A DNA stretch of 64,000 bases from an uncultured Gemmatimonadales bacterium. GTDB taxonomy: Bacteria > Gemmatimonadota > Gemmatimonadetes > JACCXV01 > JAHWKZ01. The notes beneath the pieces were generated by a model. That model had not been told where the DNA came from. It did not search any database and was given only the letters and a program-made list of their open reading frames with translations. The stretch covers positions 31,013 to 95,012 of the forward strand of contig CAMYLR010000008.1 of assembly GCA_947259315.1 (NCBI GenBank). The letters are read 5' to 3'. The position numbers and the translations under genes are program-made. Shown one piece after another: positions 2,201 through 52,890 of the stretch. Position 1 is the first letter of the stretch; the number at the start of each line of letters is the position of its first letter.

Positions 2201-2214
2201 TAATATAGGGAGCC

Positions 2215-14498: not shown

Positions 14499-15284
14499 CT
14501 AGACTGTTACTCCCCGCTCGCTCTCACTTATAAACGTGATAAAGCGGACAATCTCCGGGTACGGATGAAGCTCGTCCTTGGCTCGAGCAAGCGCCTGCGT
14601 GATGTTGAGCTTGGAGTTGAAGAAAAGCCGGTAGGCTCGCTTGAGCTCACTCTTGACGTTCTCTGGGAAACCCCTTCGGTCCAGGCCGACTGAGTTGAGC
14701 CCAAACAGTGCCGCTGGATCACCTGCCGCCTTGACGTATGGTGGAACATCCTTCTGGATGCGAGAGCAGCCGCCGATAAAAGCATGCGCGCCGATACGGA
14801 CGAATTGATGCACCGGTGTCATCCCACCGATGATGGCGTTTTCGTCGACGCTGACGTGTCCCGCCAGGTTCACCGCATTTGACAGGATGACGCCGTCGCC
14901 GACCAGGCAATCGTGCGCTACATGGACGTACGCCATGAGCAAACACGCGTCACCGATGCTCGTGTACCCCTGGGCAAGTGTACCGCGGTTCACCGTCGCG
15001 TACTCGCGAATCACTGTGCCGTCGCCGATCACGCACGTGGTCGGCTCGCCCTGGTACTTCAGATCTTGAGGATCGCTCCCCACGACGGCCCCGTAGTGGA
15101 TCTTGCACCGTTCCCCGATCGTAGTGTCACGCTCGATGACCGCGTGTGCCGCTATGCGTGTGCCAGCGCCGATCGTCACGCCAGGACCGATGATCGCATA
15201 CGGGCCGACGGAAACATCGGCACCGATCTGTGCCCCTTCGTCGACGATCGCAGTCGTGTGGATGCTCTCCGTGATCGACTTCAT
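14499..15284 (-). CDS. lpxA: Acyl-ACP--UDP-N-acetylglucosamine O-acyltransferase
   Basis: Left-handed beta-helix hexapeptide repeats; the N-terminus MKSITESIHTTAIVDEGAQIG is typical. The track ORF extends to 15362, overlapping fabZ. The ATG at 15284 gives an ATGA-type junction with lpxC-fabZ. Confidence 0.9.
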   Translation of the reverse strand: MKSITESIHTTAIVDEGAQIGADVSVGPYAIIGPGVTIGAGTRIAAHAVIERDTTIGERCKIHYGAVVGSDPQDLKYQGEPTTCVIGDGTVIREYATVNRGTLAQGYTSIGDACLLMAYVHVAHDCLVGDGVILSNAVNLAGHVSVDENAIIGGMTPVHQFVRIGAHAFIGGCSRIQKDVPPYVKAAGDPAALFGLNSVGLDRRGFPENVKSELKRAYRLFFNSKLNITQALARAKDELHPYPEIVRFITFISESERGVTV

Positions 15285-16633
15285 TTTTCGACCAATGTTG
15301 CCATCAGATCCGCTTCGGCTACAACGGTACCGTCGACGCGAGCCAAACCACGCATCTTGCAATGCGCGCCTCGCCGTCGCACCATCTCGAGTTCGCAGAC
15401 CAGCTGATCCCCAGGTCGAACCGGATGTCTGAACCTGACGTTGTCTAAGCCGGTGAAGTAGACGACCTTTTCCTCGCCTGCATCTACCGAACTCATCAAA
15501 AGCAAACCGCCAACTTGGCCCATGGCCTCGACGATCAGCACCCCCGGCATCACCGGATGACCCGGGAAATGACCCTGGAAGAACGGCTCGCTTATCGTCA
15601 CGTTCTTGATGCCGACGACGCGTTCTCCGTCTTCCATCTCGATGACTCGATCAACGAGCAGGAACGGATAGCGATGTGGGATCGTGTCCAGGATCTGTGA
15701 CACGTCGAGCACGGTCTTCGAAGGCTGATGCTCCGAGACCGCTACTTCTGACTGCCTACCGACATGCGGGCTCGCGTTGTTGCCGTTCTCGCCGGCCATT
15801 CGTCGCTTTAGGATCTGCACCAGCGCCAGGTGGGTCCGGTGGCCGGACCTATGAGCGATAATGTGAGCCTGAATGTCGACGTTTAGAACTTTCAAATCGC
15901 CGAGCAAATCCAGGATCTTGTGACGGACCAGCTCGGTTGGGAATCGGAGTCGTTCTTCACTCAGGATCTCGTCGTCACCGATCACGATCGCATTGCGGAG
16001 ATTGCCACCGCGAATTAGACCAGCTTCTCTCAGCTGTTCGATCTCGCCCAGGAACCCGAATGTCCGAGCGGGCGCGATTTCTTTTTCAAACGTGTCCGGC
16101 GTGATCTCAAACGACTCGAACTGATGTTGGACTAGCGGGTGATCAAAATCGATCGAGAATGAGACTTGTAACCGATCCGAGGGCAGCAGGGTAATCTCGA
16201 CACCACCGTCCTCATAGAAGATCGGTTCCTCGACACGATAACGCTTGCGCTCCGCGTCGAGCTCCGTGAGTCCCGCCTCTTGCAACGCCTTCCAAAACGG
16301 CAAGCTGGATCCGTCTCCTACAGGTGGCTCACTGGAATCGAGTTCAATCCGCAGATTGTCTATGCCTCGCACCGCAAGCGCAGCAAGGACGTGCTCGATC
16401 GTGTGGACTTTGCTACCGTCGATCCCAATCGACGTCCCTCGTTCCACGCCAATTACGTGGTCGGGCTCCACGACGATCTCCGGATGCCCTTCCAGATCGA
16501 TGCGAACAAACCGGATACCAGTGTTCGCCTCCGCGGGAAGAAACGTCATGTGACACTGATTCCCGGTGTGGAGTCCAACTCCGCTATAGGTCACAGGACG
16601 CGCAATGGTGAGTTGCCGCTCGTTACTCGTCAT
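15281..16633 (-). CDS. lpxC-fabZ: Bifunctional UDP-3-O-acyl-GlcNAc deacetylase / (3R)-hydroxyacyl-ACP dehydratase (LpxC-FabZ fusion)
   Basis: N-terminal LpxC (TLLPSDRLQ, HKILDLLGDL, HRSGH). C-terminal FabZ hotdog (RYPFLLVDRV, FFQGHFPGHPVMPGVLIVEAMGQ). Confidence 0.9.
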   Translation of the reverse strand: MTSNERQLTIARPVTYSGVGLHTGNQCHMTFLPAEANTGIRFVRIDLEGHPEIVVEPDHVIGVERGTSIGIDGSKVHTIEHVLAALAVRGIDNLRIELDSSEPPVGDGSSLPFWKALQEAGLTELDAERKRYRVEEPIFYEDGGVEITLLPSDRLQVSFSIDFDHPLVQHQFESFEITPDTFEKEIAPARTFGFLGEIEQLREAGLIRGGNLRNAIVIGDDEILSEERLRFPTELVRHKILDLLGDLKVLNVDIQAHIIAHRSGHRTHLALVQILKRRMAGENGNNASPHVGRQSEVAVSEHQPSKTVLDVSQILDTIPHRYPFLLVDRVIEMEDGERVVGIKNVTISEPFFQGHFPGHPVMPGVLIVEAMGQVGGLLLMSSVDAGEEKVVYFTGLDNVRFRHPVRPGDQLVCELEMVRRRGAHCKMRGLARVDGTVVAEADLMATLVEK

Positions 16634-16661: not shown

Positions 16662-17684
16662 CTAAGATTTGGATCTCACCCTGCGCTCCAACGCCTTGAC
16701 ACGCTGGAACAGCTCGGGGAGTCGGGAGAAAAGCGCGTGTGCGCGCATTTGTTCTCGATGAGATCGCGCCGGATAGCCTGAGTACTCGGCGTCTGCTGGG
16801 ATGTCGCCAATCACCCCTCCCTGAGCGCCAACCCTGGCGCGGGCACCGATCTTCACGTGGCCTACGATCCCTACCTGACCCGCTAACATAGCGCTCTCGC
16901 CCACCTCTGTGCTGCCTGCGATACCGACTTGAGCAACTATGACAGCGTTTTTACCTATTTGAACATTATGAGCAATGTGGACCAGGTTGTCAATCTTGAC
17001 CCCAGACTCGATGATCGTCTCTCCGGCCGACCCACGATCGATCGTGACGTTGGCACCAATCTCGACGTCATCGCCGATCGACAAACCTCCCCGCTGGGGA
17101 ACCTTGTAGTGCTGTCCGAGCTTGTCGGTCGCATAGCCGAAACCGTCGGAGCCTAGCACAGCCCCGCTCTGAACGATGCAGCTTTTTCCGAGGTGGGTAC
17201 CCCGATGCACCGTCACACGCGAGAAGAGTTGACTATTGTCGCCGATCTCGGTGCCCTCTTCGATGACGCAGAGCGGACCGATCACAACGCCTGATCCCAC
17301 TACCACGCCTGGGCCGATGATGCAGCCAGCGCCAATCGAGACGTCGTCCGGCAGTGTCGTCGCTGAATCCACGATCGCCGATTCATGAACACCAAACTCG
17401 ACCGCAGGCGGGGGTAGCAACAGATCCACGGCGCGTGCGAATGACAGATAGGGGTTTTCGCTTCGCAGCACATTCTGGCCATTGGCCTGATAATCCTCGT
17501 CAACGACCAGCGCTCCGGCGGACGATGCCAGAGCTGCTTCCAAGTACTTGGGGTTTGCGAGGAAGGAGAGGTCTTCCGGGCCGGCCCCATCTAGCGGGGC
17601 GACACCGCTGACCTCGACCAGAGGGTCACCATCCAGTCGGGCGTCGATCGCCCTCGCCAGCTCACCTAGCGAGTACGATGGCAT
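16662..17684 (-). CDS. lpxD: UDP-3-O-acylglucosamine N-acyltransferase
   Basis: 340 aa with hexapeptide repeats and an LpxD N-terminal domain. Confidence 0.9.
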   Translation of the reverse strand: MPSYSLGELARAIDARLDGDPLVEVSGVAPLDGAGPEDLSFLANPKYLEAALASSAGALVVDEDYQANGQNVLRSENPYLSFARAVDLLLPPPAVEFGVHESAIVDSATTLPDDVSIGAGCIIGPGVVVGSGVVIGPLCVIEEGTEIGDNSQLFSRVTVHRGTHLGKSCIVQSGAVLGSDGFGYATDKLGQHYKVPQRGGLSIGDDVEIGANVTIDRGSAGETIIESGVKIDNLVHIAHNVQIGKNAVIVAQVGIAGSTEVGESAMLAGQVGIVGHVKIGARARVGAQGGVIGDIPADAEYSGYPARSHREQMRAHALFSRLPELFQRVKALERRVRSKS

Positions 17685-17714: not shown

Positions 17715-18263
17715 TTAGTTCGAAGACGGTGCAACAGGCTCCGAAGCCCGGAGCTTCTGAATGACCTCCTCGGTGATGTTGAGCGCTGGGTCTCCGGCGA
17801 CTAGGGCGCCGTCGTTCAGATCGAATATCAACGAGTATTGCCCCTCTCGCCTGGTCTGATCGATTACTCGATTCACACGCTCAATAATCGGTTGCATGAG
17901 TTCGGCTTGACGTGTTCCAGCCTCCCCTTCAGGCCCGAACTTGCTCTGGAAATACTCCTGCATCTCACGCTCGAGTCTGAGCATCTCTTCTTGACGCTCG
18001 GTCTTTTTCTCGGGCGACAGAATCACCTCCTGCCGCTTGTATTCCTCGAACAGCTCTTGCAGCTCAGTCTGTCTCTGAGCCAGCGAATCGCGCCACTCAT
18101 TAGCGGTTCGATTGAACTCCTCATTGGCCTCCGTGTAGCCGGGCGCTTGCTTGATGACCGCATCCGAGTCCACGTAGGCGATTTTTAACTCGCCATCCTG
18201 CGCCAGCGCGACACCGGGTAGAACAGCCAGCAAGAGAGCCGCGACAACGATCCTTCCGGACAT
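17715..18263 (-). CDS. skp: Periplasmic chaperone Skp/OmpH
   Basis: Signal peptide MSGRIVVAALLLAVLPGVALAQ followed by a coiled-coil E/K/Q-rich OmpH domain. The track ORF starts 30 nt further upstream. Confidence 0.8.
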   Translation of the reverse strand: MSGRIVVAALLLAVLPGVALAQDGELKIAYVDSDAVIKQAPGYTEANEEFNRTANEWRDSLAQRQTELQELFEEYKRQEVILSPEKKTERQEEMLRLEREMQEYFQSKFGPEGEAGTRQAELMQPIIERVNRVIDQTRREGQYSLIFDLNDGALVAGDPALNITEEVIQKLRASEPVAPSSN

Positions 18264-18353
18264 GATGGATTCCCTCCTCATAGGTATTGTCACCAGCCAG
18301 ATAATTTAGCTCGTACGCCCCAAATCTGCTGCCTGACACGCGGGACCCAGGAC

Positions 18354-20699
18354 TCAGCGCTGCAGCATGCCAAACCGGAAATGCAACTCCCACCCCGGAT
18401 CCGGGTTACCCAAGACGTCCCGCCGATCAAACCCATACCCATAGTCGAGCCCCAACGGTCCAACCCCGGGTAGCTCGACGGACACCCCAATACCCGCGCC
18501 ACGCTTCAGGTCGGCAAACGTCATGTCACGAAACTCCCGGAACACGTCTCCAGCATCGTAGAAAACAGAGGCATATATCGTATCCGAGATCTTGAAGAAG
18601 TGCTCAGCCGTCAGGAGCAGGAAGGCGTTTCCACGATCACTGCCGCAGGAATCACCCTCCGGCGAGCCTGAATTCAATAACCCAACGCAGTTATCCTGAT
18701 AGCCACGAAGCCCTTCGGCGGGGAACTGCACCCCTCCCAAGACAAACTGCTCGGTGATCGGGACGAAGCCGGTGGCATTGATCCCCCCGGTCTTGAACTT
18801 CAGGTTTATCGTCGTCCGATCGTTGAACGTGGACGCAAACCAGGAGCTCTCGAACTCATACTTCTGGAACCCGACGTTCCCGCCCAGTGGTCCACCTGCC
18901 AAGTCGACATTTAGCGCGTGCCGGGCACCTTGAATAGGGTGGCGGCGAGGGAGCCGGGTGTCTCGAACCAACCCGAGCGTGAGGCTCGACTCGGTACGTG
19001 GGTACTCTTCTTCGAACGACTCGTTGGTGCCGGTTGTGTCTTCCAGGTCAACCCGCTGCCACTTGTAGCCGTAGAATACTCGTGACGCGTTGTCAAACGG
19101 CAGTGGCGTACCAAACCGGACGCTCGCACCAAGCGCGTCTTGACGAAAGGTCTGGTTTGTAAACCGGCGGTCGAAACTAAAGAACGAGGTCGAAAGAGAG
19201 GTTCGGGTACCCAGGAACACCGGTTCGGTGTACCCCAACTCGATATTCTGGTTACGGCTGCCGAACTCCCACCGGATGCGACCCACTTTTGCCTGCCCGA
19301 ACAGGTTTGGCTGCTCGTAGCCGATAAACCCGGACAAACCAGTCCCCCCTCCCACGGCAGCGCCCAACGAGAGCGATCCCGTGCGGCGCTCTGTCAGCTC
19401 AAAGGACAGGTCGATGTCGCCCGTCTCTTGATCTACGACGCGTGTGGTCGGAATGATCCCGGGCTCGAAGAACCCAAGCCCTTCTAACGCGAGCAGGCTA
19501 TTGCGAACGTCGGTCCGGCGAAAACGTCCTCCCGGCTGGACGAAGAGTTGCCTTCGAATGACTGATTCGTGGGTTACGGTGTTGCCCTTGATCGACACGC
19601 GTTGCACGTGGGCCGGCGTGCCCTCGCGGATCTGCCAAGTGAGATCGACCACGGCGGTATCGGGGCGCACCCTGCGAATCGGTTGCACCTGAGCGTAGAT
19701 GAACCCGTCGTCGGCGTACAGGTTCAACAGGTCGGCCTGGGTCTGCTGAACCGCCTCGGTATCAAACACGCGACCTGACTCGACCTTGACAAACCCCCGG
19801 AGGTCGGCTCGAGAGAAACGGGTGTTACCCTCGATCTCGATGTTGCCGGTTCGGTAGCGGGTACCTTCCTCGACGGTCGCAAAGAGTCGCATCTTGCCTT
19901 CGGTTTCGTCGACTTGCAGCGAGTCCGAGACTACCCGCATGTCCAGATACCCATGTCGCCCGTAGAATGATGGAAGCACTTGGCTCAGATCGGCCCGCCA
20001 TTTGGCCTCATCGAACTCGCCGTCCTTCCAAAACCAGAAGCCCTCTGGCTCTGTCTCGAGCTCTTTCCGCAGTTTCTTGTCGGAGAACGCTTCGTTTCCG
20101 TCAAACTCGATCGTCTTGATCGCTACTTTCCGGCCTTCGTTGACGGTGACGGAGACCGCCGTCGAATCCGCGGCTGGCGCTTTAGCTTCTATTCTCACGT
20201 CGGCGAGATAGAAACCTCTGACCTGATACAACTCCCTTACGTCTAACTCTGCCTGGTGAACGCGACTGTCAACCAAGCGATCACCGGGTCGCAGTTTGAG
20301 CGCCTCCTCGACATCACGCTCACTCACTTCGTCCACGCCATCGAACGCCAGGGCGGTGACAACGGGCGCCTCTTCCACCCTCAGCACGAGAGTGACGCCT
20401 CCATCGGCCGGGCGCGTATCGATCTGGATGTCGTTGAAGAGATACGTCTTCCAAAGGGTACGGATCGCTTGCTGCATCACGCGCGGCGTGAGCAGCGCGT
20501 CACGTCGCAGTCCGGAAAGAGCGCCGACCCGCTGGGGATCGATCGTCTGTGTTCCCTCGACGACGATTTCCGATATCCGCACGCCAACAGCTTGGGGATA
20601 CGACGGCTGTGCGGCGAGCAGTATTGCGGCAACTACCAGGCTGAGGGGCAGCGCGAAGCGCGCTAGCGCGCGGGCGGGGGCAGCCCGCGACGCCGTCAA
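18354..20699 (-). CDS. bamA: Outer membrane protein assembly factor BamA
   Basis: 781 aa. Signal peptide, POTRA repeats, and a C-terminal Omp85 barrel ending in an F-containing C-terminus. Confidence 0.9.
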
Positions 20700-23188
20700 C
20701 CGACCTCTTCCTGGATCGACCCGGCTCCCTCCGGCTTGCGGGGACTGTCGACAACGAAGACCAGCTTGTCGTTCTCGTCGTCCACGTTGACGACCACCTC
20801 ATCACCGGCAGCGAAGGTGCCCTGGAGCAACTCCTCCGAAAATGGATCTTCCAAGTAACGCTGCATCGCTCGTTTCAGGGGACGGGCTCCAAACTTCTCA
20901 TCGAACCCCTTCTCGGCGAGGAAATGCTTCGCTTCGTCGGACAGTACGAGAGTGAGCTCTCTCTCACCCAACCGCTCCAGGACGTCACGGAACAGGATAT
21001 CAACGATCTCCACGATGTGTTGCTCGGAGAGCGGATGGAAGACGATGATCTCATCCAGCCGGTTCAAGAACTCCGGATTGAAGGTGTTGTCGATCTCATC
21101 TTTGACCGCTTCCTCGATCTGCATTGCGCGCGACGACTCGGTTGGCTTGTGAAAACCAAGTGCCTTGCCACCCGTGATCCGTCGTGCACCGATGTTCGAG
21201 GTCATGATCACGACCGTGTTCTTGAAGTCGATCTTCCGTCCGTAGTTATCCGTGATGTGTCCCTCGTCCAAGATCTGAAGCAGGATGTTGAAGACATCCG
21301 GATGGGCCTTCTCGATCTCGTCCAACAGAACCACCGAGTACGGTTTCCGGCGGACTTCCTTGGTCAGATAGCCAGAGTCCTCGTAGCCGACATAACCCGG
21401 CGGCGCGCCGAGAAGACGGCTGACCGTGAACTTCTCCATGTACTCCGACATATCGATCCGAATGAGCGAGTTCGGGTCCGCGAACAGGAACCGGGCCAGC
21501 GCTCGAGCTAGCTCTGTCTTTCCAACACCCGTTGGACCGGAGAAAATGAACGATCCAATAGGTCGACGGGGGTCCTTGAGACCAGCCCGGGTTCTCCGAA
21601 TCGCCTTGGAGATCGCCTCGATGGCCGGGTTCTGACCGACGATGAACTTGTGCAGCTCATCCTCCATCTGCAGCAGGCGCTCCGTCTCCTCCTCCTTGAG
21701 ACGAACGACTGGGACTCCCGTCCAGCGACTCACGATGAACGCTACGTCCTCCGTGCTCAGGGCCGGGCGTTCAGCATTCGAACCGCGCTCCCACTCCAGC
21801 TTCTTGCGTTTGATCGTGGATTTCAGCTCACGCTCACTATCGCGGAGTTTGGCGGCGGTCTCGTAATCTTGAGCCTTGATCGCCTGATCCTTGCGGACGA
21901 CGATCTCCTGTACCTCTTCTTCCAGTGCCAATAGCTCTGGTGGTGGTACCTGAGTCGCCAGGTGCACACGCGCGCATGCTTCATCGATCACATCGATCGC
22001 CTTGTCTGGCAGGAAACGATCAGTGATGTAGCGCTCGGAGAGTCGAGCTGCCGTTTCGAGCGTGTCATCCGGGATATCGACGTTGTGGTGCTCTGAATAC
22101 CGCGGACGCAAGCCTTGGAGGATCTCGACCGTTTCATCGATCGTCGGCGGATCTACGACTACCGGCTGAAAACGGCGCTCCAGCGCTCCGTCCTTTTCGA
22201 TGTACTTGCGATACTCGTTCAACGTGGATGCGCCGACACACTGAAGTTCGCCACGGGCCAAAGCGGGCTTCAACATGTTGGATGCGTCGATCGCACCTTC
22301 CGCTGCCCCGGCCCCGACCAGTGTGTGCAGCTCATCGATAAACAGGATCACGTTCTGTGACTGCTTGATTTCGTTGATGACCGCTTTGAGTCGCTCTTCG
22401 AACTGACCGCGATACTTCGTGCCGGCAATCACGGCCGCCATATCGAGAGAAAGGACCCGATGATCCCGGAGGCTATGGACGATCTCGCCGTTCGTTATGC
22501 GCTGCGCGAGGCCCTCCACGATGGCGGTCTTGCCCACACCCGGTTCACCGATCAGTACGGGGTTGTTCTTCTTCCGGCGTGAGAGGACCTCGATAACACG
22601 CTCGATCTCCTTGTGCCGGCCGATCGTCGGATCGAGTTCTCCGTCGCGCGCCAGATCCGTCAGATCCCGACAGAAGTGGTCTAGCGCCGGTGTCTTGGAC
22701 TTTTTGTCGCTCGTCTTGGACGTCTGGCCTCCGCTCTCCATAGAGCTCAGCTCCCCTCCGAGCAGGCGAATCGTCTCGTTACGGGCTACGTCGATCGTGA
22801 CTCCAACATCATCCAAAACTTGGGCTGCCACGCCCTTTTCCTCTCGCAACAGGCCGAGCAAGAGATGCTCGGTGCCCACGTATGAGTGCTTGAGACTCCG
22901 TGCTTCCGCAACCGAAAACTCGAGCACCTTCTTGGCCCGGGTCGTGTACGGAACCTCGTCTGCCGTCATGTCACTCTTTCCGAGCTCGACCCGCTCCTCG
23001 ATCCGCTCTCGCAACTCATCGAGGTCAGCGTTCAGGTTCGTCAGGATCGCCGCCGCGACGCCCTCGCCTTCTCGGATGAGTCCCAGCAGAATATGCTCGG
23101 TGCCCACGTAGTCGTGATGCAGGCGGGTCGCCTCTTCGCGTGCCATCGAAAGGACTTTGCGCACTCGATCGGTGAAATTGCTATTCAT
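20696..23188 (-). CDS. clpC: ATP-dependent Clp protease ATP-binding subunit ClpC
   Basis: Two Clp_N repeats, two AAA+ modules ([18 protein letters not shown]) and a UVR motif. The N-terminus [20 protein letters not shown] is typical. The track ORF extends 54 nt further upstream. Confidence 0.9.
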
Positions 23189-24263
23189 CGGTATCCTGTC
23201 CTTCCTCCGCCAGCATTTCTCGCACCAAGGAAGCCCGCTCAATCTCGCGCTCCCGCTTGTCGAGCTTGCGACCAGCGCGCTTCTCCAGATGGGCTATCTG
23301 GGTCCACAATAATAGTTGATTGAGCGTGGATACCCCGATCCGAGGCAGCAGTTTCATGCTCACGCCTAGACGTACGGCGGACAGCAGATTCATCATCTCG
23401 TCGAACGAAAGCGAGCGGGCGCAAGTCATCAGACCGTACGCTCGCCACACCTTGTCCTCGATTTCGTCCAGTGCGTCCCGAACAAGAACCTGGCGCGCGT
23501 TCTCCTCGTACTCGATCACCTGACGGGTGATCTGACCCAGGTGATCAACCAACTCATCCTCACTCTTGCCAAGCGTGGTTTGGTTAGAGATCTGAAAGTA
23601 GTTCCCGATAACGTCAGACCCTTCGCCATAAAGTCCACGGAACGTTAGACCGATTTGAGCCAAACCCTGAAGCACCTTGGCGATCTCGCGTGTCAGAACG
23701 AGTGCCGGCAAATGAGCCAACACGGAGGCCCGCAGACCGGTGCCAGTGTTTGTCGGGCAGCTAGTCAGAAAGCCGAATCGATGATGATAGGCGAAGCGCA
23801 ACTGGCTGCGCAGCGTTTCATCAGTTCGGCTGGCGATTTGCCACGAGGTTTCGATCTGCAGACCTGGCGTCAGCGCCTGTATGCGCACATGGTCCTCTTC
23901 GTTGATCAAAAGGGCCAAACGGCCCCCGTCCCCCACCAAAAGACCGCTCGCCTCACGGAACTTCACCATCTCACGGCTGACCAGGTGTCGTTCGAGAAGC
24001 ACTGTCAGATCGGTCTCGGGCAAATCCGCCAACCGTACGAACTGGCGCATATCGTTACTCGTCGACTCGAAGGCCTCGACGATCTCCTCCATGACCAGCT
24101 CCTGCTGGCTCCCGCTTATCGTCTCCCGGAACGGATATCGCTCCAGGTTGCGCGCCAATCGGATGCGCGTCGACAGAATCACACCCGCATGCGGGCCGTC
24201 TCCAGTGATCCAAGCCAACCCACCTTCAACAGGTTGCAGGAGATCGTCACTGGGCAGGTTCAC
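23181..24263 (-). CDS. mcsB: Protein arginine kinase McsB (ATP:guanido phosphotransferase)
   Basis: [12 protein letters not shown] phosphagen-kinase motif; N-terminus [18 protein letters not shown]. Confidence 0.85.
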
Positions 24264-24817
24264 TCCTGTACCCCTCCTACGTCTTCCACTCCTGATTGTG
24301 CATCCGCTGAAACTGTGATCGCCTGGTCTGATTCCAACTCCACGATCGCGTCGCGCAACTCGGCGGCCCGCTCGTACTCCTCGTTATCGACCGCCTGTCG
24401 GAGCTCGCGGCGCAGGGATGCCAGTTTGGCTTCTGGGCCAGACGGTAGTTGTACGCCTTCATCCTCACAGATGCCAACATGCTCGTTGGAGCCATGGATT
24501 CTCCTCAGCAGCGCGCTCATTTCTTGCTCAAAGGTAGAGTAGCATCGAGAGCACCCGAGCCTGCCGGTCTTTCGGAATTGCCGAAAAGTACACCCGCACC
24601 GGGGGCAAGCCGCGTTCGTATTTGTCGCACTGGTGAAGATCGGCGCGCCCATCTCGGACAGGAAATCCGACAACGGCGCTTGGGATCCCGGCAGCGGAGT
24701 CTTGAGTCCGCGCTCCTCTGCGCACGACTGGCACAGATGCAGGGTCTCGGTCTCGTCGTTCACTATCTGGGTGAAGTGAACGCTGGCCGGGTTTTCGTGG
24801 CAATCTTCACACAGCAT
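24260..24817 (-). CDS. mcsA: McsA, activator of McsB (zinc-finger / UVR protein)
   Basis: MLCEDCHENPASVHFTQIVNDETETLHLCQSCAEE and CPRCGCTFRQFRKTGRLGCSRCYSTFEQ align with B. subtilis McsA (MICQECHERPATFHFTKVVNG...). UVR-like C-terminus EEYERAAELRDAIVELE. The track ORF starts at TTG 24835. Confidence 0.8.
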   Translation of the reverse strand: MLCEDCHENPASVHFTQIVNDETETLHLCQSCAEERGLKTPLPGSQAPLSDFLSEMGAPIFTSATNTNAACPRCGCTFRQFRKTGRLGCSRCYSTFEQEMSALLRRIHGSNEHVGICEDEGVQLPSGPEAKLASLRRELRQAVDNEEYERAAELRDAIVELESDQAITVSADAQSGVEDVGGVQE

Positions 24818-24909
24818 AACTGCAATCCTGGTCAAAGAGATTCACTACCAGCACCTAGAAGGTAATTGCACCGCCACATCGAGTAAAACGCGCCTCTGTG
24901 TGGCGATGT

Positions 24910-25659
24910 TCAAACCCCCGTTGGGTCCGACCACCCCTCGGGAGCCACACCAGCGGTGACCGGCGCCACGACTCCGTCGTCCAAACGCAAGAGACGGTCC
25001 GTCCTACCGGCGAGGCGCTCGTCATGGGTCGCTACCACAAACGCCACCCGCTTCTCTCGCGCCAAGCTGAACATCAGGTCGTGCAGGTGCTCGCTGTTGG
25101 CGCGATCCAGATTGCCTGATGGCTCATCAGCCAGGATCACCATTGGCTCGTGAACCAGTGCCCGCGCAAACGCGACTCGCTGCTGCTCGCCGCCGGACAG
25201 CGCGCTTGGCCGATGGGTCAAGCGTTCGCCCAAACCAACTTCTTCCAACACCGCACGAGCCTTACTCCGTGCGGTGTCGTCGTCGACCCCTTGGATACGA
25301 AGCGGCAGGGTTACGTTCTCCAGCGCCGAGAACTCCATCAGTAGATGATGAAACTGGAAGACAAACCCCAACAGCTTACTGCGGACTCTGGACAACTCGC
25401 TGTCAGACAACTGGCTGAGGTGCTGACCAGCCAGCACAACCCGCCCTCGAGTCGGTCGATCGAGGCCCCCCAAGAGGTGCAGGAGGGTGCTCTTGCCGGC
25501 TCCCGAAGCGCCAACAACGCCCACCGTCTCGCCGGGTTGCACCTCCAAATCTACACCCCGCAACACCACCAATGGGCCCCCACCGCTTGGGTACTCCTTG
25601 TGCAGACGGTGCCCTACCAGCACTGGACCGTCGGCTTCGTAGTCCCGTCGATCACTCAT
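24910..25659 (-). CDS. lolD: Lipoprotein-releasing system ATP-binding protein (LolD-type ABC ATPase)
   Basis: GASGAGKST, LSGGEQQRVAFARAL and ILADEPSGNLD; MacB/LolD family. Confidence 0.8.
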   Translation of the reverse strand: MSDRRDYEADGPVLVGHRLHKEYPSGGGPLVVLRGVDLEVQPGETVGVVGASGAGKSTLLHLLGGLDRPTRGRVVLAGQHLSQLSDSELSRVRSKLLGFVFQFHHLLMEFSALENVTLPLRIQGVDDDTARSKARAVLEEVGLGERLTHRPSALSGGEQQRVAFARALVHEPMVILADEPSGNLDRANSEHLHDLMFSLAREKRVAFVVATHDERLAGRTDRLLRLDDGVVAPVTAGVAPEGWSDPTGV

Positions 25660-26890
25660 ACCGAATGGCGTCGACCGGTGCCATGCGCGCAGCCTGCGAA
25701 GCCGGATACCACGTGGCCACGAGGCTGATTAACAAGCTGGCACCCACGATCAGCGCTACCCCAAGTGGTTCCACTTCCACCGGCAAGGTGTCGATGAAGT
25801 AAACGTCGCCGGGCAGTGAGATGAATCGATAGCGGGCCAGCAGGAAAGCGGCAACGAGTCCGACCACAGTGCCAAGACCCGTACCGACGACGCCGATCAG
25901 GGCACCTTGGTAGACGAAAACTCTTCGAACCGATCGGCCCTCTAGCCCCATCGAGCGCAAGATCCCGATCTCTTTCGTCTTGTCCATCACGATCATCGTC
26001 AGCGTGCTGATGATGTTGAACGCGGCCACCAGCACGATGAGAACCAGTATAATGAACATGGCTCTCTTCTCTAGTTTCAGCGCCGCGAACAAGGGCTGAT
26101 TTAGCTCGATCCAGGTTGTCACGTAAAACGGGCCCTCGAGCTGATCGACGACCCGCTCGCCGACGTCACTCGCCTGCCAAATATCAGCCACCCTGGCGGC
26201 CACGCCGTAAGCGATATCCCCCGATTGCAGATACTGTTGCATCGACTCGAGAGACGCATAAACGAACTTCGAATCGTACTCGAAGAGGCCGCTCTTGAAC
26301 GTCCCTGCGAGGATGAACTTCTGGAGCTTGGGTACCGTGCCGTAGAGGGGAGAGACGGCGGCCACTTCAGGTGTAGTCAGGGTCAACGTATCGCCAGGGA
26401 ATGCTCCCAACCGATCGGCCAACAGATAGCCGACAACGACCTTTGGGTAGGGCTCGTCCGGAGCCTGCCGCAGCTCATAGCGGCCCGACAAGATCTGGTT
26501 CTTGGTGTCGGCGACTTGAGACTCGAGATCCGGATCTACGCCCCGGATCACCGCTCCCTCGTTGCGGCCCCGACCGTGACCGATGATCCCTTCGGTGTAG
26601 ATGAATGGAGCCGCGCCCTCTACACCGGGTGTAGCGGCGATTTCCTCCAGCACATCCCGGTACTCTGTGAGCGGCTCGGAGTTGTACTTCTGCACGATGA
26701 GGTGTGGCGTGTTGGTGAGGATCTTGTCTCTCAGATCGCGCTGCAAACCACTCATAACGCTCATCACTATGACCAACGCCGCGACCCCGACGAACACGCC
26801 TCCGATCGCAATCAGACCGATCACCGAGATCACCCCCGATCGGCGCTTGGACGTCAAGTAACGCAGCGCGATTTGCCACTCCAGACTCAC
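25652..26890 (-). CDS. Lipoprotein-releasing system permease (LolC/LolE, FtsX-like with a MacB periplasmic domain)
   Basis: 412 aa. N-terminal TM, a large periplasmic domain, a C-terminal FtsX 3-TM bundle, and [10 protein letters not shown]. Confidence 0.8.
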
Positions 26891-28407
26891 GACTCACCCT
26901 CGTTTTCAACCCGACCCTCCTCGGGACGCAGTGCCGGGAATAGGATGACATCCCTGATGGCCGGTTGATCGGTCAAGAACATCACTAGGCGGTCAATGCC
27001 GATCCCCATACCGGCAGTTGGCGGCATGCCGTACTCAAGAGCTCTCAAGAAATCTTCGTCTACGACGTTCGGCGCCTCCAGGTCACCAGCCGCAGCGAGC
27101 TCGGCTTGATCCTCTAACCGGCGCCGCTGGTCGCGAGGATCATTAAGCTCACTAAAAGCGTTTGCCCATTCGCGCCCAAACAGGTAGGCCTCGAATCGTT
27201 CCACCAGCCGGGGATCGCGTGGGTGAGCCTTGGCCAAGGGCGACGTCAACCGCGGGTGATCAATCACGAACACCGGCCCTTCGAGAGTCGGCTCGACGAG
27301 ATGATCGAAGAGCGCCTCTAGGATCTTGCCCTCTCGCTCTTGTTCCGAGATCTCGATTTCGTGTTGCGCCGCCTCCGCGACCAGAGCTGTCCGTGACAGA
27401 TCGTCGACCGCTACACCGTGGTCGGCTAACGCATTCAAGAAACCGAGCCGTGGCCACGGTGGCGTGACGTCTACGCTCCGACCTTGGTACGTAATCTCGG
27501 CACCACCGGTCACTTCTCCTACCAGACCGACCAAAAGCTCTTCCGCCAGCACCATGAAATCCTCGTAATCGGCGTACGCCTGATAGAACTCGAGCATCGT
27601 GAACTCAGGACTGTGAAACCGATCAATGCCTTCATTGCGGAAGTCCTTGGCCACCTCGTAGACACGCTCGAGCCCCCCAACGATGCACCTTTTCAGATAC
27701 AACTCATCGGCGATACGCAAATACAACGGAACGCCCAGCGCTTGGTGATGGGTCACGAACGGGCGCGCGGTGGCGCCACCATACACCGGTTGCAGAACGG
27801 GCGTCTCGACCTCGAGAAAACCGCGGTTTTCGAGCTCGTCTCTCAGATATCGGATGATCTGTGACCGACGCTCAAAAACTCCCCTGGCCTCCGGCCGGAC
27901 GGCAAGGTCGGCGTAGCGCTGCCGATAACGAAATTCGCGATCGACCACGCGGTGGTACGCCCGATCTCCGTCCTCTGATTCCACGAGCTTCCCAAACGGC
28001 AGCGGCCGCAGAGCCTTCGCCAGCAGCACCGCCTCGCGTACCCGCACGGTGATCTCCCCCGTCCGCGTACGAAATAGATGGCCCGCAACTCCGACAAAGT
28101 CCCCTATATCCAGGTGATCAACCAGACGGTACGCGTCGCCAAGCTCGTCTTGCCGCAGATATGCCTGGACGCGACCTGACCGGTCAGCCACATGAAAGAA
28201 CGTCGTCTTCCCGTGCCGGCGAACGGTCACGACTCGACCCGCGATTCGGCATTCGATGTCCTCCCCTTCGTCCTCGAAGGCCTCGACCAGATCCGCAGCC
28301 GAATCGGTCACCTCCCAGGACGACGGATACGGATCGACACCGATTCGCTCGAGGTCGATCAGTTTCGACAGTCGAACCGATTGAGGATCAGTTTCTCGGT
28401 CAGGCAT
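26887..28407 (-). CDS. lysS: Lysine--tRNA ligase (class II)
   Basis: OB-fold N-domain and class II motifs (FRNEG, GIDRLVMF). Confidence 0.95.
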   Translation of the reverse strand: MPDRETDPQSVRLSKLIDLERIGVDPYPSSWEVTDSAADLVEAFEDEGEDIECRIAGRVVTVRRHGKTTFFHVADRSGRVQAYLRQDELGDAYRLVDHLDIGDFVGVAGHLFRTRTGEITVRVREAVLLAKALRPLPFGKLVESEDGDRAYHRVVDREFRYRQRYADLAVRPEARGVFERRSQIIRYLRDELENRGFLEVETPVLQPVYGGATARPFVTHHQALGVPLYLRIADELYLKRCIVGGLERVYEVAKDFRNEGIDRFHSPEFTMLEFYQAYADYEDFMVLAEELLVGLVGEVTGGAEITYQGRSVDVTPPWPRLGFLNALADHGVAVDDLSRTALVAEAAQHEIEISEQEREGKILEALFDHLVEPTLEGPVFVIDHPRLTSPLAKAHPRDPRLVERFEAYLFGREWANAFSELNDPRDQRRRLEDQAELAAAGDLEAPNVVDEDFLRALEYGMPPTAGMGIGIDRLVMFLTDQPAIRDVILFPALRPEEGRVENEGES

Positions 28408-29523
28408 CAGCTGCTGCTACCGGCTGTCTGCTTCAGATACGCCTCCATGAACTCGATCAGATGTTGCCCCTGGAGCACACCCTCGACATCCGACATCTCA
28501 TACCCCGTTCGGTGGTCCTTGACCATCGTGTATGGATGCAGCACGTACGACCTGATCTGGCTGCCGAACGCGATCTCCTTCTTCTCCGCCTCCAGCTCCT
28601 CGCGTGACTTCTCACGCTCGGCCTTGAGGTACTGGTGTAGCCTCGATCTCAACAGGCGCATGGCGGTCTCACGATTCCGATGTTGACTGCGCTCAGCTTG
28701 ACTCTGAACGACGATGCCTGTCGGGAGGTGAGTGATCCGCACCGCACTGTCCGTCTTGTTCACATGTTGTCCGCCTGCACCGCTGGCGCGATACGTGTCG
28801 ATCTTCAAGTCCTTGTCTACGACCTCTACGTTGATCTCGTCCGCCACATCCGGATAGACAAACACCGAGGCGAAGGAGGTGTGCCGCCGGGCGGCAGAAT
28901 CAAACGGGCTTATGCGCACTAGCCGATGCACGCCTTTCTCCGCTTTGAGGTAGCCGTAGGCGTGGTCACCCTTGACCTCGATCGTGACGCGGTCGATCCC
29001 CGCCTCTTCGCCTTCCTGAATATCGATGATCTGATAAGCGTAGCCGTTGCTCTCAAACCATCGCGTGTACATGCGCATGAGCATCGAGGCCCAATCCTGG
29101 CTCTCAGTGCCACCTGCACCAGGGTGAATGGTGAGGATTGCGTCGCGAGAATCGTCCGCATCGCTCAGCATGCCTCTCAGTTCGAGGCGAGCCAGCCGAT
29201 CGGCGATGCCTCCCTCGAGCGCACCAAACTCGTCCCAAAGAGCAGCCTCTTCCTCACCCTCGAGCAGAGACAGCATCTCACCGGCTTCGTCGACCTCGAC
29301 TCGGAGTGCATCGTACTCTCCGACCCACGACTGGTGTTGCTTGATCTCGGCTAGTATCGCCCGCGCGCGCTCATTATCAACCCAGAAATCCGGCGCCGCG
29401 GACTCCGTCTCGAGCGCGGCTATCCGCTCTCGCTTGGAAGGCAGGTCAAAGATAGCTCCCGAGGAGCTCGAGCCGCTCCTCTAGTTGCGACAATCGGCGG
29501 CGGTGGTCTCGTACGTCACTCAT
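28407..29523 (-). CDS. prfB: Peptide chain release factor 2, made from two frames by programmed +1 ribosomal frameshift (29523..29449 joined to 29447..28407)
   Basis: Frame 0 reads MSDVRDHRRRLSQLEERLELLGSYL then UGA. The sequence tat CTT TGA Cct is the canonical CUU UGA C shift site, with an SD-like GGGAG just upstream. The +1 frame continues DLPSKRERIAALETESAAPDFW... into the 289-aa ORF containing GGQ (SGAGGQHVN) and the SPF motif. Confidence 0.9.
29445..29451 (-). other. prfB programmed +1 frameshift heptamer CUUUGAC
   Basis: Read directly on the minus strand: ...ggg agc tat ctt tga cct gcc... The in-frame UGA sits at codon 26, as in E. coli prfB. Confidence 0.8.
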
Positions 29524-29544: not shown

Positions 29545-30528
29545 TCATGTTTGCCCTTGCTCAGTTATCATGGGGCCGGCGACCGAGGTCTGATGCTCAC
29601 TCATGTCGCCCCGGCGATCGACTACGTACAGTGATCCCTTGAATGACTTGGCGTAGTGCTTCATCTCGGTTGCCAACTCGCTCACTTTCGCGGGGTGCGT
29701 GAACTGGCGCCGCACGTTGGTGACACAACCAATCGACAACGTCATCAACGGTATCTCGCGAACACGCCCCTGCCGGTCTTCGGCGATGTAGAAGCCACGC
29801 TGTCGATCCTGGTCGGGATACTGCAGTGGCATCAGCGTATCGAACGTCTCGATGACTGCGTTGGATACTCGAGCTAAGTCTTCGAACGGCACGGTGTAAA
29901 TAAAGTCGTCCCCACCAATGTGACCCACGAAGCCGCTTGACGATAGCCGCCGCACTATGTCCCGGAGGATCAGGGAGAGGATCCAAATCACCTTGTCACC
30001 GCGCGGATACGAGTAGACGTCGTTGAATTCCTTGAACGAGTCGATGTCAGCGTAGCACACCGCGAACCGCTCACCGCCGGCGATCCTGCGCTCGATCTCA
30101 TGCTGAATGATCTTTGTGCCGGGCAACATCGTGGATGGGTGGACCGCTACATCCCGGGCAACCCGTTTTAGCACCATCCTGAGCCGTAGCCGCTGCTCAC
30201 GGCCAGAGTGGGTGCCGCTCAAGAACTCATCTGCCCCGCTCTGGAAGCCGTTGGCGATCTGTTCGACTTGATGCTCGCGCGACATGAACACGATCGGGAC
30301 GACCGAGTTGAACGGATCCGCCTTGAGTCGCTCGCACAGCTCCGAGGCGATCGCGAAATTGTCATCGGCGTCAAGCACGACGAGATCCACGATCCCCCGA
30401 TCGAGCGCCTGTCGGACCTCAACGGCGGTCTCGAGCGGGACGATGTCGCCGCCTTCTTCCTCGACAAATCGCTCCAGCGACTCGGGCGTGCGCAACGCAT
30501 GCGACAGATAGAGCACCCTGAGGCTCAT
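29545..30528 (-). CDS. Response regulator receiver + GGDEF domain protein (diguanylate cyclase-like; GGDDF variant)
   Basis: N-terminal receiver-like fold (DLVVLDADDN) without the N-terminal acidic pair. C-terminal GGDEF domain with HIGGDDFIY and RYGGDEF-type flanking motifs (FAVCYADIDSFKEFND). Confidence 0.8.
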   Translation of the reverse strand: MSLRVLYLSHALRTPESLERFVEEEGGDIVPLETAVEVRQALDRGIVDLVVLDADDNFAIASELCERLKADPFNSVVPIVFMSREHQVEQIANGFQSGADEFLSGTHSGREQRLRLRMVLKRVARDVAVHPSTMLPGTKIIQHEIERRIAGGERFAVCYADIDSFKEFNDVYSYPRGDKVIWILSLILRDIVRRLSSSGFVGHIGGDDFIYTVPFEDLARVSNAVIETFDTLMPLQYPDQDRQRGFYIAEDRQGRVREIPLMTLSIGCVTNVRRQFTHPAKVSELATEMKHYAKSFKGSLYVVDRRGDMSEHQTSVAGPMITEQGQT

Positions 30529-30591
30529 GACTTCTCCAAGCTGTGGGGTTGTCAGGGATGGCGCAACCGTGTCCCATCCCGATGATCGGGA

Positions 30592-33081: not shown

Positions 33082-33149
33082 GATACCGCCAAAAGCGGAC
33101 CTGTCAAGTCTGTTTTTTGGTAACGATTATCGAATGGGGATCGTTGGTG

Positions 33150-34000
33150 CTACGGCTCGATTAGCCTGAGGTGACTCTGCTGCTCGATCTCGATCGATCG
33201 GCGCGCAACCAAACCGTCTTCAACTATGACCCGCGTGATCTCAGCCTCGGCGTTGGTCTCCACTCGGATTGTCTGGCCCCGTTCGTGAGCGAAGTACATC
33301 CGCCCTCGCACCCGAATTCGCTCTTCGGCCGAGACGGCGCCGGAATCGTCGTCCTTCTCGGGGGCAGTAGGCAGATAGACGTCACCGTCGAAGGCGATGA
33401 TCGCGATCGGTTCACCGTCCTCCTCGGTTAGATCCTCGAGGACGTAGTTGGACGTCGTGACGACCGGTTCGGCCTCTGGCGAGAGCACCTTGACCTGCTG
33501 AGTCCAACTGTCACCGATCTTGAGCGCTCGTTGGGGGAAAACCGGTTGTGTCTGCTCCAAGTAGGTGCGGAAATCCATATCGTGGAACAGGGTCTTCGCG
33601 GTCTCGAGGTTGGTGACGTCGATGATCCTGCCCTGAGGGCTGATCTCGAGGTTGATCGTGAAGTCGCCGGGTTCTGACTCCTCTTCGTCTTCGACCCTGG
33701 CGGGTAGGTGATAGGTCCATGCCAGCAGATAGTTGCCGCTCGGGGTTAGATCGGTCGCGACTTCGTCAACGCGCAGGCGCCGCTCATACGTTCTCGTGGT
33801 CTTGTCTGCGGTGACCGTATCGGGATAAGTCGCGGTACCGTTGGCGGTGTACTCGTAGTAGAGGGTGTCTCCCACTTGGTAGTGGAGTCGCAGCGCTACC
33901 TGGGGCTCGTCGGGGGCCTCTCGACAGCCGGTCAGGCACAAAGCGGCCAGCAGCAGCGGAAGCAGCTGCCTCTTTCTATCCGGGTTTAGGGAGTTCATGG
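33150..34000 (-). CDS. Hypothetical lipoprotein
   Basis: The internal ATG gives MNSLNPDRKRQLLPLLLAALCLTGC (lipobox LTGC). The longer track ORF (to 34403) overlaps the anti-sigma gene and is probably an over-extension. Confidence 0.5.
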
Positions 34001-34480
34001 CGCTTCGGCGAGACTCGCCAGGATGACGCCCTTGGACAGTGGATCGACGCTGCCGACGGCAACCGTGGCTCGCTCGAAGAACTCGTAATCGTCCTCCCAT
34101 CCACTGTCGAAAGCGACCGCCGGAACCGGCGGTTCCGATTCCATGGGCTCGCTGCGGGCTCCCCACCACACGCCGATCAATAGCACGATCGAAGCCGCCA
34201 TACCGAGAGCCGGAGCCATCCAACGCGTCGCTCGTGGCGCGCTGCGAGCAACGAACGGCCACCGCGCCCAAAAGGAGTCCCAGTACCCGATCGGCGGCCG
34301 TGGCGGATCGGCACCATACCAGCGGAGCGAACTCAACAACGCGCCACACTCCTCGTGCTGCATCCGGCAGGCCTCGCACCTCCATAGATGCACCTCGGCA
34401 CACCGCGCGCGGGCGGGATCGAGCCGTCCGTCCAGCAGTTCGTACAGCGTCTCCCTATCGAGGTGCTGGGTTTGACTCAT
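33995..34480 (-). CDS. Anti-sigma factor (zinc-finger type, single TM)
   Basis: HxxxCxxC (EVHLWRCEACR), TM segment MAPALGMAASIVLLIGVWW, and an SD (GGAGG) upstream of the ATG at 34480. Confidence 0.6.
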   Translation of the reverse strand: MSQTQHLDRETLYELLDGRLDPARARCAEVHLWRCEACRMQHEECGALLSSLRWYGADPPRPPIGYWDSFWARWPFVARSAPRATRWMAPALGMAASIVLLIGVWWGARSEPMESEPPVPAVAFDSGWEDDYEFFERATVAVGSVDPLSKGVILASLAEAP

Positions 34481-34575
34481 GCGTCGCGATTCCTCCATTT
34501 CGGACTCCATTACCTAGACGCAAACCCCGAGCCGATGTTCAAGCGCATCATCGTGACCCGCCCCGGCGAACCACC

Positions 34576-35181
34576 TCAGCGGTGCTTGGAGAGAATGCGG
34601 CGCAGTTTCTCACGCCCGTAAAACAGGTTGGATCGAACCGTCGCCGTCGGGCAACCGCACTTCCGAGCCACCTCTTCAGTCGACAACCCCTCGATATCGT
34701 GAAGTACCACGATCTCCCGCTGCCGCGGCGGCAGCACAGCAATCGCCCGCTCGAGCTTCAACAGGAACTCCCGATGCTCGACCCGCTGGTCGGGCGATTC
34801 GGAGCGGTGATCGGCAAAGCCTTCCTCGAACCCCTCGGGTGATTGAGACTCGACCGCAGTCGACCGCTGGCGGCGACGTAGATGGTCCAAAGCGGTGTTG
34901 ACGATGATCCTCCGGGCCCACGGGAAGAACGCCTCCGGTCGTGATAGCCGGGCGAGGTTTTGATACACCTTCACGAACCCCTCTTGCAGCACGTCGTTGG
35001 CATCCTCATGCGATCCCGTGTACCTCCGGGCCAACGCGTAGAAAGCGTCTTGATATGCCGATATGAGATCGCGAAAGGCGCGTGCGTCATGACCCGCGGC
35101 TCGAGCGACCAAATCGGCCAAGCGCTCGTCCACGGCCGCCGTTGTTGAGGTTTGTCTGATTGAGGTCGTCGAGTCTGTCAT
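34576..35181 (-). CDS. ECF (group IV) RNA polymerase sigma factor
   Basis: Sigma-70 region 2 (VLQEGFVKVYQNL, FFPWARRIIVNTALD) and region 4 (LSTEEVARKCGCPTATVRSNLFYGREKLRR). Confidence 0.85.
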   Translation of the reverse strand: MTDSTTSIRQTSTTAAVDERLADLVARAAGHDARAFRDLISAYQDAFYALARRYTGSHEDANDVLQEGFVKVYQNLARLSRPEAFFPWARRIIVNTALDHLRRRQRSTAVESQSPEGFEEGFADHRSESPDQRVEHREFLLKLERAIAVLPPRQREIVVLHDIEGLSTEEVARKCGCPTATVRSNLFYGREKLRRILSKHR

Positions 35182-43385: not shown

Positions 43386-43402
43386 GCGGTTAGAAATTGG
43401 CG

Positions 43403-43840: not shown

Positions 43841-43908
43841 ACTGGCATGTTAGGGGTGGAAACGGTCGGCAGCAACCGCGATGTGGTGTGGGGCACGTAG
43901 TCTAGCGA

Positions 43909-52878: not shown

Positions 52879-52890
52879 TCGATGTGAGGG

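Follow-up and report, generated by a model that had tools for sequence, protein, structure and literature searches.

In the literature, the phosphoarginine (pArg) degradation tag figures almost wholly as a CtsR-controlled stress system of Gram-positive bacteria; what, then, do mcsA, mcsB and clpC do in a 64-kb stretch of DNA (hereafter the window) from a Gemmatimonadota metagenome-assembled genome (MAG), where they lie among genes for the assembly of a lipopolysaccharide (LPS) outer membrane? Genes of the window were taken from an open reading frame (ORF) listing and their starts were checked against near-identical public contigs. All three genes are on the minus strand: mcsA (24260-24817) encodes a 185-residue McsB activator that contains two zinc fingers plus a UVR-like coiled coil, mcsB (23181-24263) a predicted protein arginine kinase of 360 residues, and clpC (20696-23188) an AAA+ unfoldase of 830 residues that would serve as the pArg reader. 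In our view, these genes probably belong to a complete, vertically inherited pArg protein-quality-control system that is housekeeping-expressed and lacks a dedicated repressor.

McsB matches the Pfam family ATP-gua_Ptrans (E = 5e-61; PF00217 spans residues 57-255) and passes the NCBIfam equivalog for protein arginine kinase, NF002194, with 399.2 bits versus a cut-off of 385. It aligns almost over its full length to the McsB structures 6fh1 (E = 2e-82), 8wtb and 6tv6 (about 1e-82); the alignment to 6fh1 starts at residue 16/17, reaches residue 356 and includes the C-terminal dimerization domain (McsB_C), and homologues of this McsB carry PF27454. Identity over the whole length is 41% to McsB of Geobacillus stearothermophilus and 39% to that of Bacillus subtilis. 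The N-terminal domain of phosphagen kinases is absent, and alignments to animal kinases begin at their residue ~105-115. To compare individual residues, the numbering was calibrated on the published B. subtilis residues E121, C167, R190, R194, S285, R337, D338 and R341, all of which fell on the expected letters. A 12-letter motif occupies residues 169-180 and includes Cys169, the equivalent of B. subtilis C167. The NEEDH motif (N121-E122-E123-D124-H125) and Cys169, together with R29, R125, R176, R207 and E212 (B. subtilis numbering), are invariant in 82 of 82 McsB sequences, with the definition of the NEEDH/Cys167 motif and the residue roles taken from PMC11046695; the arginines for nucleotide and substrate are among these invariant positions. 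By orthology with Bacillus, the window McsB would have protein-arginine kinase activity that is stimulated by McsA.

The activator and the unfoldase are conserved at the corresponding level of detail. The listed ORF of McsA extends from an upstream TTG (24260-24835), and the likely true start is the ATG at 24817, giving MLCEDCHENPASVHFTQ; the ATG starts of mcsA and clpC fit the alignments to B. subtilis McsA and ClpC as well as the public gene calls. Residues 1-171 match B. subtilis McsA (8wtb_B) end to end (E = 4e-32), and Pfam places the UVR motif PF02151 at residues 136-169. All eight zinc-ligand cysteines of the two CxxC...CxxC domains Z1 and Z2 (C3, C6, C29, C32, C81, C84, C99 and C102 of B. 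subtilis) are present, and they are kept in nearly all of 45 Gemmatimonadota McsA proteins, the sole exception being one Q at C6. Among the residues of McsA that contact McsB, R96, G98, Y103, H118 and H124 are retained, while peripheral contacts vary (K83R, F97L, H107E and K127I). For clpC, the listed start is a TTG at 23242, and the ATG start gives the coordinates used here. With B. subtilis ClpC as the reference, ClpC reaches 1014 bits, compared with ~760 for ClpB and ~587 for ClpA, and it stays below the NCBIfam cut-offs of both ClpB and ClpA. Pfam detects a pair of Clp_N repeats and a pair of AAA modules, along with a short M-domain of the UVR type; the protein has an LGF ClpP-docking loop, in which a 10-letter stretch aligns to NKYVGFNVQ of B. 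subtilis. The two pArg pockets of ClpC depend crucially on E32 and E106 (residue roles from PMC12583610); these are kept in the N-domain as E31 and E107, and both GTEH(I/L)LLGL motifs are conserved. In the alignment to B. subtilis ClpC, K85 is retained and F436 of the M-domain is replaced by Tyr. In one Gemmatimonadaceae MAG (L027, 9103-11791), clpC is distributed over three overlapping ORFs, which suggests frameshift assembly errors or a pseudogene.

A candidate pArg phosphatase is encoded 27 kb from mcsA-mcsB-clpC. This YwlE-type low-molecular-weight (LMW) phosphatase of 159 residues (51681-52160, minus strand; Pfam LMWPc, PF01451, 1.4e-26) is encoded immediately downstream of a Sua5/TsaC gene (52219-52890), an arrangement resembling that of ywlC..ywlE in B. 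subtilis. Its P-loop reads CTGNTCRT, with Thr at position 5, and its GDPIG stretch aligns to the catalytic Asp-Pro of YwlE. Thr instead of Ile at P-loop position 5 switches LMW protein tyrosine phosphatases from phosphotyrosine to pArg in YwlE, PtpB and DARP (PMC8001253, PMC7772506). Top matches in the PDB include the YwlE arginine phosphatases 4pic and 4kk3, orthologues with at least 51% identity and an intact N-terminus all have CTGNTCR[ST], and distant homologues often have Ile at position 5. One Gemmatimonadota orthologue is named "low molecular weight protein arginine phosphatase" by NCBI. Judged from their sequences, the genes of the window encode a predicted kinase, its activator, a reader and a candidate eraser.

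The module lies in a string of minus-strand genes that runs without interruption across 16.6-29.5 kb. Upstream of mcsA are prfB (28407-29523, with a +1 frameshift), which together with lysS (26887-28407) closes the conserved block on its upstream side, lolE (25652-26890; NCBIfam TIGR02212, 364 versus a cut-off of 362) and lolD (24910-25659; TIGR02211, 282, under the cut-off of 308); downstream of clpC are bamA (18354-20699; TIGR03303, 457 bits versus a cut-off of 297) and, assigned by family matches, skp (17715-18293) and lpxD (16662-17684), with lpxC-fabZ, lpxA, a DUF374 gene and lpxK as the next genes. mcsA and mcsB overlap by 4 nucleotides (nt), mcsB and clpC by 8 nt, and the stop of clpC and the start of bamA by 4 nt; gene calls on the near-identical public contigs match these starts and junctions. 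BamA, Skp/OmpH, LpxD, LpxC-FabZ, LpxA, LpxK, LolE, LolD and a TonB-dependent receptor mark the window as diderm DNA. Because prfB-lysS-lolE-lolD-mcsA-mcsB-clpC-bamA-skp-lpxD form a same-strand string with overlapping or abutting junctions and without a dedicated repressor, housekeeping expression is the most likely mode of expression. The G+C content of the mcsA-mcsB-clpC stretch is 0.58-0.60, the same as that of the neighbouring DNA, and neither the annotation of the window nor the gene calls of the public contigs revealed mobile-element genes near the module.

Which regulator, if any, acts on this module? CtsR was searched for with a probe, namely the ORF that precedes mcsA in a locus of Paenibacillus, verified with Pfam (PF05848 and PF17727), and with a hidden Markov model (HMM) of nine such sequences. 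In the ORFs of all six frames of the 64-kb window, neither the probe (phmmer) nor the HMM detected CtsR (best E = 55); tblastn of the window was likewise negative (best E = 0.46). With as much as 8 kb of flanking DNA covered on either side, CtsR was found in 0 of 71 non-Bacillota loci of the genome scan described below and in none of the near-identical contigs L001-L003, and it is located directly upstream of mcsA in nine of nine Bacillota loci. One Bacillota locus, L067, has the order ctsR-mcsA-mcsB-clpC and belongs to the Halanaerobiaceae, a diderm family of Bacillota, and, therefore, the absence of CtsR is not a consequence of the diderm state itself. Control by CtsR looks like an addition specific to Bacillota. 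The window offers no CtsR operator above chance: the heptad GGTCAAA, which is present at 24830-24836 in the spacer between lolD and mcsA, occurs seven times in the window versus 5.8 expected, and the tandem operator (A/G)GTCAAANAN(A/G)GTCAAA, with up to three mismatches allowed, occurs four times versus 2.0 expected, with the sole match near mcsA requiring three mismatches. Another of the seven heptads (29444-29450) is the prfB frameshift site read on the opposite strand. The CIRCE operator (controlling inverted repeat of chaperone expression) of HrcA had no match in the window, and no HrcA gene was found in the annotation of the window.

The spacer itself (24818-24909, minus strand, 92 nt) sets the lineage of the window apart, as the estimated gap between lolD and mcsA is instead about -1 nt in most Gemmatimonadales, a spacing that points to co-transcription and translational coupling. 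It is not conserved in other lineages, in which lolD and mcsA often abut, and the equivalent spacers of these lineages share no common motif and contain no tandem heptad operator. A scan of the spacer for sigma-70-like promoters and terminators found none, with counts at the level of shuffled sequences. An imperfect 10-bp inverted repeat is present at 24869-24908 (minus strand; AUCGCCACAC ... GAUGUGGCGGU); we dismissed it, both as an operator and as an RNA element, because its fold is not significant (z-score of -1.56), its arms already carry mutations in L001, a contig of 98% identity, and other lineages do not have it. A reading of the heptad's TTGACC as a -35 box was dismissed too, because its distance to the ATG is 13 nt and a -10 box is missing.

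An earlier note on this DNA, made from the sequence alone, had described mcsA, mcsB and clpC as a module with overlapping junctions, had aligned McsA and its zinc fingers to B. subtilis McsA, and had placed the module in an organism with BamA/Lpx/Lol machinery, with no ctsR in front of it and with a single GGTCAAA rather than a tandem CtsR box. The family, structure and residue matches, the overlaps and the searches described above agree with all of this, with the heptad being a chance-level occurrence. The note had further proposed to look for ywlE and to trace the phylogeny of McsB, and had held that its interpretation would fall if McsB lacked the catalytic Cys/Glu. In fact, a YwlE-type gene is present in the window, Cys169 and NEEDH are intact, and the phylogeny (below) has phylum-coherent clades that indicate a vertical rather than a recent horizontal origin.

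To place the module among its relatives, we used a scan with one genome per species that gave at least 596 confirmed McsB relatives, of which the best 80 were kept; all counts are, therefore, lower bounds and biased to relatives of the query. These best 80 comprise 48 Gemmatimonadota, nine Bacillota, four unclassified bacteria, many Planctomycetota, and representatives of Eisenbacteria, Binatia, Acidoferrum (Acidobacteriota), Ignavibacteria and Verrucomicrobiota. The closest McsB homologues carry the NCBI names Gemmatimonadota or Longimicrobiales. A 99%-identical McsB is encoded in an identical gene order on three NCBI MAG contigs, the above-mentioned L001-L003, which were reached via the 99%-identical McsB P0002, the exact window McsB sequence having given no match. 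Near-identical genes are named "protein arginine kinase activator", "protein arginine kinase" and "ClpC" by JGI/IMG. Thus, McsB-McsA(-ClpC) is the norm among Gemmatimonadota, at least six other diderm phyla have it too, and the module is already recognised by annotation pipelines and ordinary for the phylum.

Gene order around mcsAB was compared by BLAST of ten window proteins against all ORFs of each locus, with counts given as loci with the arrangement out of testable loci. In Gemmatimonadota, lolD lies by mcsA in 39 of 39 loci, clpC by mcsB in 36 of 36 and bamA after clpC in 32 of 33. The same three arrangements are found in Eisenbacteria (2/2, 2/2 and 1/1), in Binatia (1/1 each) and in the unclassified lineages (4/4 each), and the first two, without bamA after clpC, in Ignavibacteria (1/1, 1/1 and 0/1) and in Verrucomicrobiota (2/2 with lolD within 1.1 kb, 2/2 and 0/1). 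Planctomycetota have lolD by mcsA in one of 11 loci and clpC by mcsB in none of nine, and Bacillota have clpC by mcsB in seven of seven loci, lolD by mcsA in none of six and bamA after clpC in none of six. The short Acidoferrum contig L058 has lolE-lolD-mcsA-mcsB-clpC; it is under the flank thresholds and is, therefore, not part of these counts. Accordingly, practically all Gemmatimonadota loci keep the block lysS-lolE-lolD-mcsA-mcsB-clpC-bamA-skp-lpxD, and several other phyla have it in whole or in part; the other Planctomycetota have mcsAB alone, and Bacillota have ctsR-mcsA-mcsB-clpC without lol or bam neighbours. A gene for a class IV (branched-chain/D-amino-acid) aminotransferase lies between lolD and mcsA in one Planctomycetia and two Verrucomicrobiota loci (L054, 3520-4395; L070, 6399-7454; L081, 6550-7422), i.e. 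the same insertion is present in both of these phyla of the PVC (Planctomycetes-Verrucomicrobia-Chlamydiae) group. The position of the module downstream of lolDE, which the earlier note had recorded, is thus a real, conserved and probably co-transcribed arrangement and not an incidental one. Its suggestion of pArg-dependent proteolysis without CtsR control is still the best reading, considering the intact residues, the lack of ctsR and operator, and the YwlE-type gene, but the implication that the module is a rare oddity in diderms has to be given up, because it is standard in Gemmatimonadota, present in other diderm phyla and already auto-annotated. Within the literature that we searched, two observations go beyond the existing annotation, i.e. 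the embedding of the module between lolED and bamA-skp-lpxD across phyla, and the loss of octamer-lock and pArg-receptor residues in Gemmatimonadota McsB that is described below.

Bootstrapped neighbour-joining trees of McsB and ClpC (100 replicates) recovered a Gemmatimonadota clade without any Bacillota sequences inside, with support of 99/100 for McsB and 100/100 for ClpC. In both trees, support was 100 for the window together with L004, for Verrucomicrobiota and for Eisenbacteria; Planctomycetota without L054 had 94 in the McsB tree. Separation of Bacillota from all others was supported by 100 in the ClpC tree and is not resolved in the McsB tree (18/100), in which the deep branching is likewise unresolved, and we make no claim about the direction of any ancient transfer. 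The phylum-coherent trees and the uniform G+C content argue against a recent acquisition from Bacillota and for linked inheritance within phyla.

Our working model, derived by orthology with Bacillus as regards the enzymatic activities, the partnership with ClpP and the transcription of the module, is as follows. The second zinc finger of McsA would bind the kinase domain of McsB and activate it, and McsB would phosphorylate arginines on proteins that are misfolded or accessible in some other way. Reading of this mark would fall to the two pArg pockets in the N-domain of ClpC, upon which ClpC would unfold the substrate and feed it to ClpP, and the YwlE-type phosphatase would erase the mark. 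Control would mainly be post-translational, by McsA, the phosphatase and autophosphorylation.

Several observations weigh against this model or parts of it. McsA scores under the cut-off of NCBIfam NF053706 (139.1 bits versus 210), a model that appears to be tuned to Bacillota, and McsB scores under the cut-off of the Bacillus-type NF053707 (360.5 versus 500). Phosphorylation of Arg194 locks the octamer of Bacillus McsB, and S285, R337, D338 and R341 are its pArg receptor residues (PMC8370763). In the window McsB, Arg194 is replaced by Lys (K196), as in 44 of 49 Gemmatimonadota, and the receptor site is partly kept, with F287, R339, E340 and R343 (S285F and D338E relative to Bacillus). Across the phylum, S285 is replaced by Phe in 44 of 49 proteins, R341 is invariant, and R337, which the window McsB retains, is lost in most. 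Because of R194K and the altered receptor site, allosteric and oligomeric control may not carry over from Bacillus; going by these residues, the "gated octamer" control of Bacillus probably differs in Gemmatimonadota McsB. It is also important to note that the activity of Gram-negative McsB homologues has never been identified and that none has been shown for a non-Bacillota McsB (PMC11046695). Finally, clpP was not found in the window, so that the ClpP partner is assumed, and co-transcription is deduced from spacing only, while the 92-nt spacer may hold a type of promoter that is invisible to a sigma-70 scan.

Could pArg/ClpC proteolysis instead act on precursors destined for the outer membrane or on enzymes of envelope biogenesis, and the module be retained between lolED and bamA-skp-lpxD for this reason, with co-transcription matching degradation capacity to the flux of envelope proteins? 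The full block in Eisenbacteria, Binatia and the four unclassified lineages would fit such a coupling, as would lolD-mcsAB-clpC in Ignavibacteria and Acidoferrum and, with the one inserted aminotransferase gene, in Verrucomicrobiota, and also the tight or overlapping junctions, which in the window include that of clpC with bamA. However, prfB-lysS and bamA-skp-lpxD are long-conserved gene strings, as in the gene order of Escherichia coli, and a module trapped between them could persist passively. Moreover, Planctomycetota have mcsAB without lol, clpC or bamA neighbours, and the literature searched holds no functional link between McsB and BamA and no substrate evidence. We regard a coupling to the envelope as unlikely; if it were true, it would give arginine phosphorylation an ancient role unknown from Gram-positive models.

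Other functions or origins of the same genes seem less probable still. That McsB mainly regulates another heat-shock repressor, such as HrcA, or serves as an adaptor of ClpC instead of tagging proteins for general degradation has a precedent in Bacillus, in which McsB also phosphorylates HrcA (PMC11046695, PMC8370763), and the intact contacts among McsA, McsB and ClpC would permit an adaptor role; yet, with neither an HrcA gene nor CIRCE within the window and no stress-type operator at the operon, we find this explanation quite improbable. We give very little weight to a recent horizontal acquisition from a Gram-positive donor, which the description of the system as classically Gram-positive in the earlier note would suggest, in spite of the discovery of the system in Bacillota, where it is best known, and of the suggestion that the tRNA-flanked mcsAB of Chlamydia were acquired (PMC10128030), because the Gemmatimonadota clades of McsB and ClpC have 99-100% bootstrap support and exclude Bacillota, synteny is identical phylum-wide, and the locus has neither a compositional anomaly nor mobile-element genes nearby. 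It is hardly conceivable that McsB is a phosphagen kinase, which would phosphorylate free arginine for energy buffering: the ATP:guanido phosphotransferase catalytic domain is common to arginine and creatine kinases, but McsB lacks the N-terminal domain of these enzymes, has the McsB C-terminal domain, exceeds the cut-off of the protein arginine kinase equivalog, and its gene is translationally coupled to those of McsA and ClpC. We, therefore, favour the pArg quality-control system with housekeeping expression.

Compared with the class III heat-shock operon ctsR-mcsA-mcsB-clpC and YwlE of B. subtilis and Geobacillus, the window has the same three genes in the same order with tight junctions; it keeps the catalytic Cys and NEEDH of McsB, the zinc fingers and McsB contacts of McsA, and the pArg pockets and ClpP loop of ClpC; and its YwlE-type phosphatase has Thr at position 5 and a gene beside Sua5/TsaC, as in the ywlC..ywlE order of B. 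subtilis. It differs from this operon in having neither ctsR nor the tandem operator, in being part of the lolED/bamA-skp-lpxD string and not a separate stress operon, in the replacements of Arg194 by Lys, S285F and D338E in McsB, and in a host with an LPS outer membrane. Chlamydia trachomatis is a diderm as well, with McsAB orthologues of putative activity and no CtsR control described (PMC10128030); its ClpC carries the loop for ClpP binding, and in vitro its ClpC-ClpP breaks down casein phosphorylated on arginine (PMC10128030), a precedent for the system proposed here. In contrast to the contiguous, phylum-wide and phylogenetically coherent genes of the window, Chlamydia mcsAB are unlinked from clpC and flanked by tRNAs. 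The pairs of Planctomycetota (L057, L062-L068, L071, L074, L080 and L082) share with the window identical McsB catalytic residues, the lack of CtsR and, mostly, Lys at Arg194, but they have no adjacent clpC, lol or bam and, unlike most Gemmatimonadota, keep the pArg receptor residues S285, R337 and R341. The catalytic domain of phosphagen kinases is homologous to that of the window McsB and shares its Cys and a NEEDH-type motif; these enzymes differ from the window McsB by their N-terminal specificity domain and by lacking its C-terminal domain and McsA partner.

Homologues in "some gram-negative" bacteria are already mentioned in the literature (PMC11046695). Based on roughly 70 related loci, the module is standard in Gemmatimonadota and common in several outer-membrane phyla, there always without CtsR, and this moves the likely origin of the pArg system well outside Bacillota. 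Cultivable Gemmatimonadota would be a place to test arginine phosphorylation in a diderm. Because no mechanism is changed and the genes are already auto-annotated, the value of these observations is mainly contextual.

Beyond the module, the window holds further features. prfB has a canonical programmed +1 frameshift, with ATG at 29523, 25 sense codons to CTT and then TGA C; the site CTT TGA C lies at 29451-29445 (minus strand), a GGGAG Shine-Dalgarno-like element is located just 5' of it, and the main ORF is in the +1 frame. Upstream of prfB, at 29545-35208 (minus strand), are genes for a GGDEF protein, a TonB-dependent receptor with CarboxypepD_reg, a DUF6263 protein, a zf-HC2 anti-sigma-like protein, seen on contig L001, and an extracytoplasmic function (ECF) sigma factor, a group that is possibly a cell-surface signalling unit. 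Rfam found only one tRNA over the whole window. Three ORFs have no Pfam family at E<=1e-5 and are putative genes, namely 35178-36911 (minus strand), 37000-37974 (plus strand) and 4401-5606 (plus strand), with 577, 324 and 401 residues stop-to-stop; the last has only a weak NCBIfam match, of the o-succinylbenzoate-synthase-like type. Directly downstream of lpxD, LpxC is fused to a FabA/FabZ-like dehydratase (450 residues; 15281-16633, minus strand). A single ORF of 787 residues (2209-4572, plus strand) combines an EgtD-like histidine-specific methyltransferase (PF10017) with EgtB-like DinB_2 and FGE-sulfatase domains and looks like a fused ergothioneine-synthesis protein with the domain order of fungal Egt1. 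Lastly, a gene for the RNA ligase RtcB (3e-168) adjoins an archease gene at 41937-43849 (minus strand), a pairing familiar from the splicing and repair of tRNA in archaea and eukaryotes.

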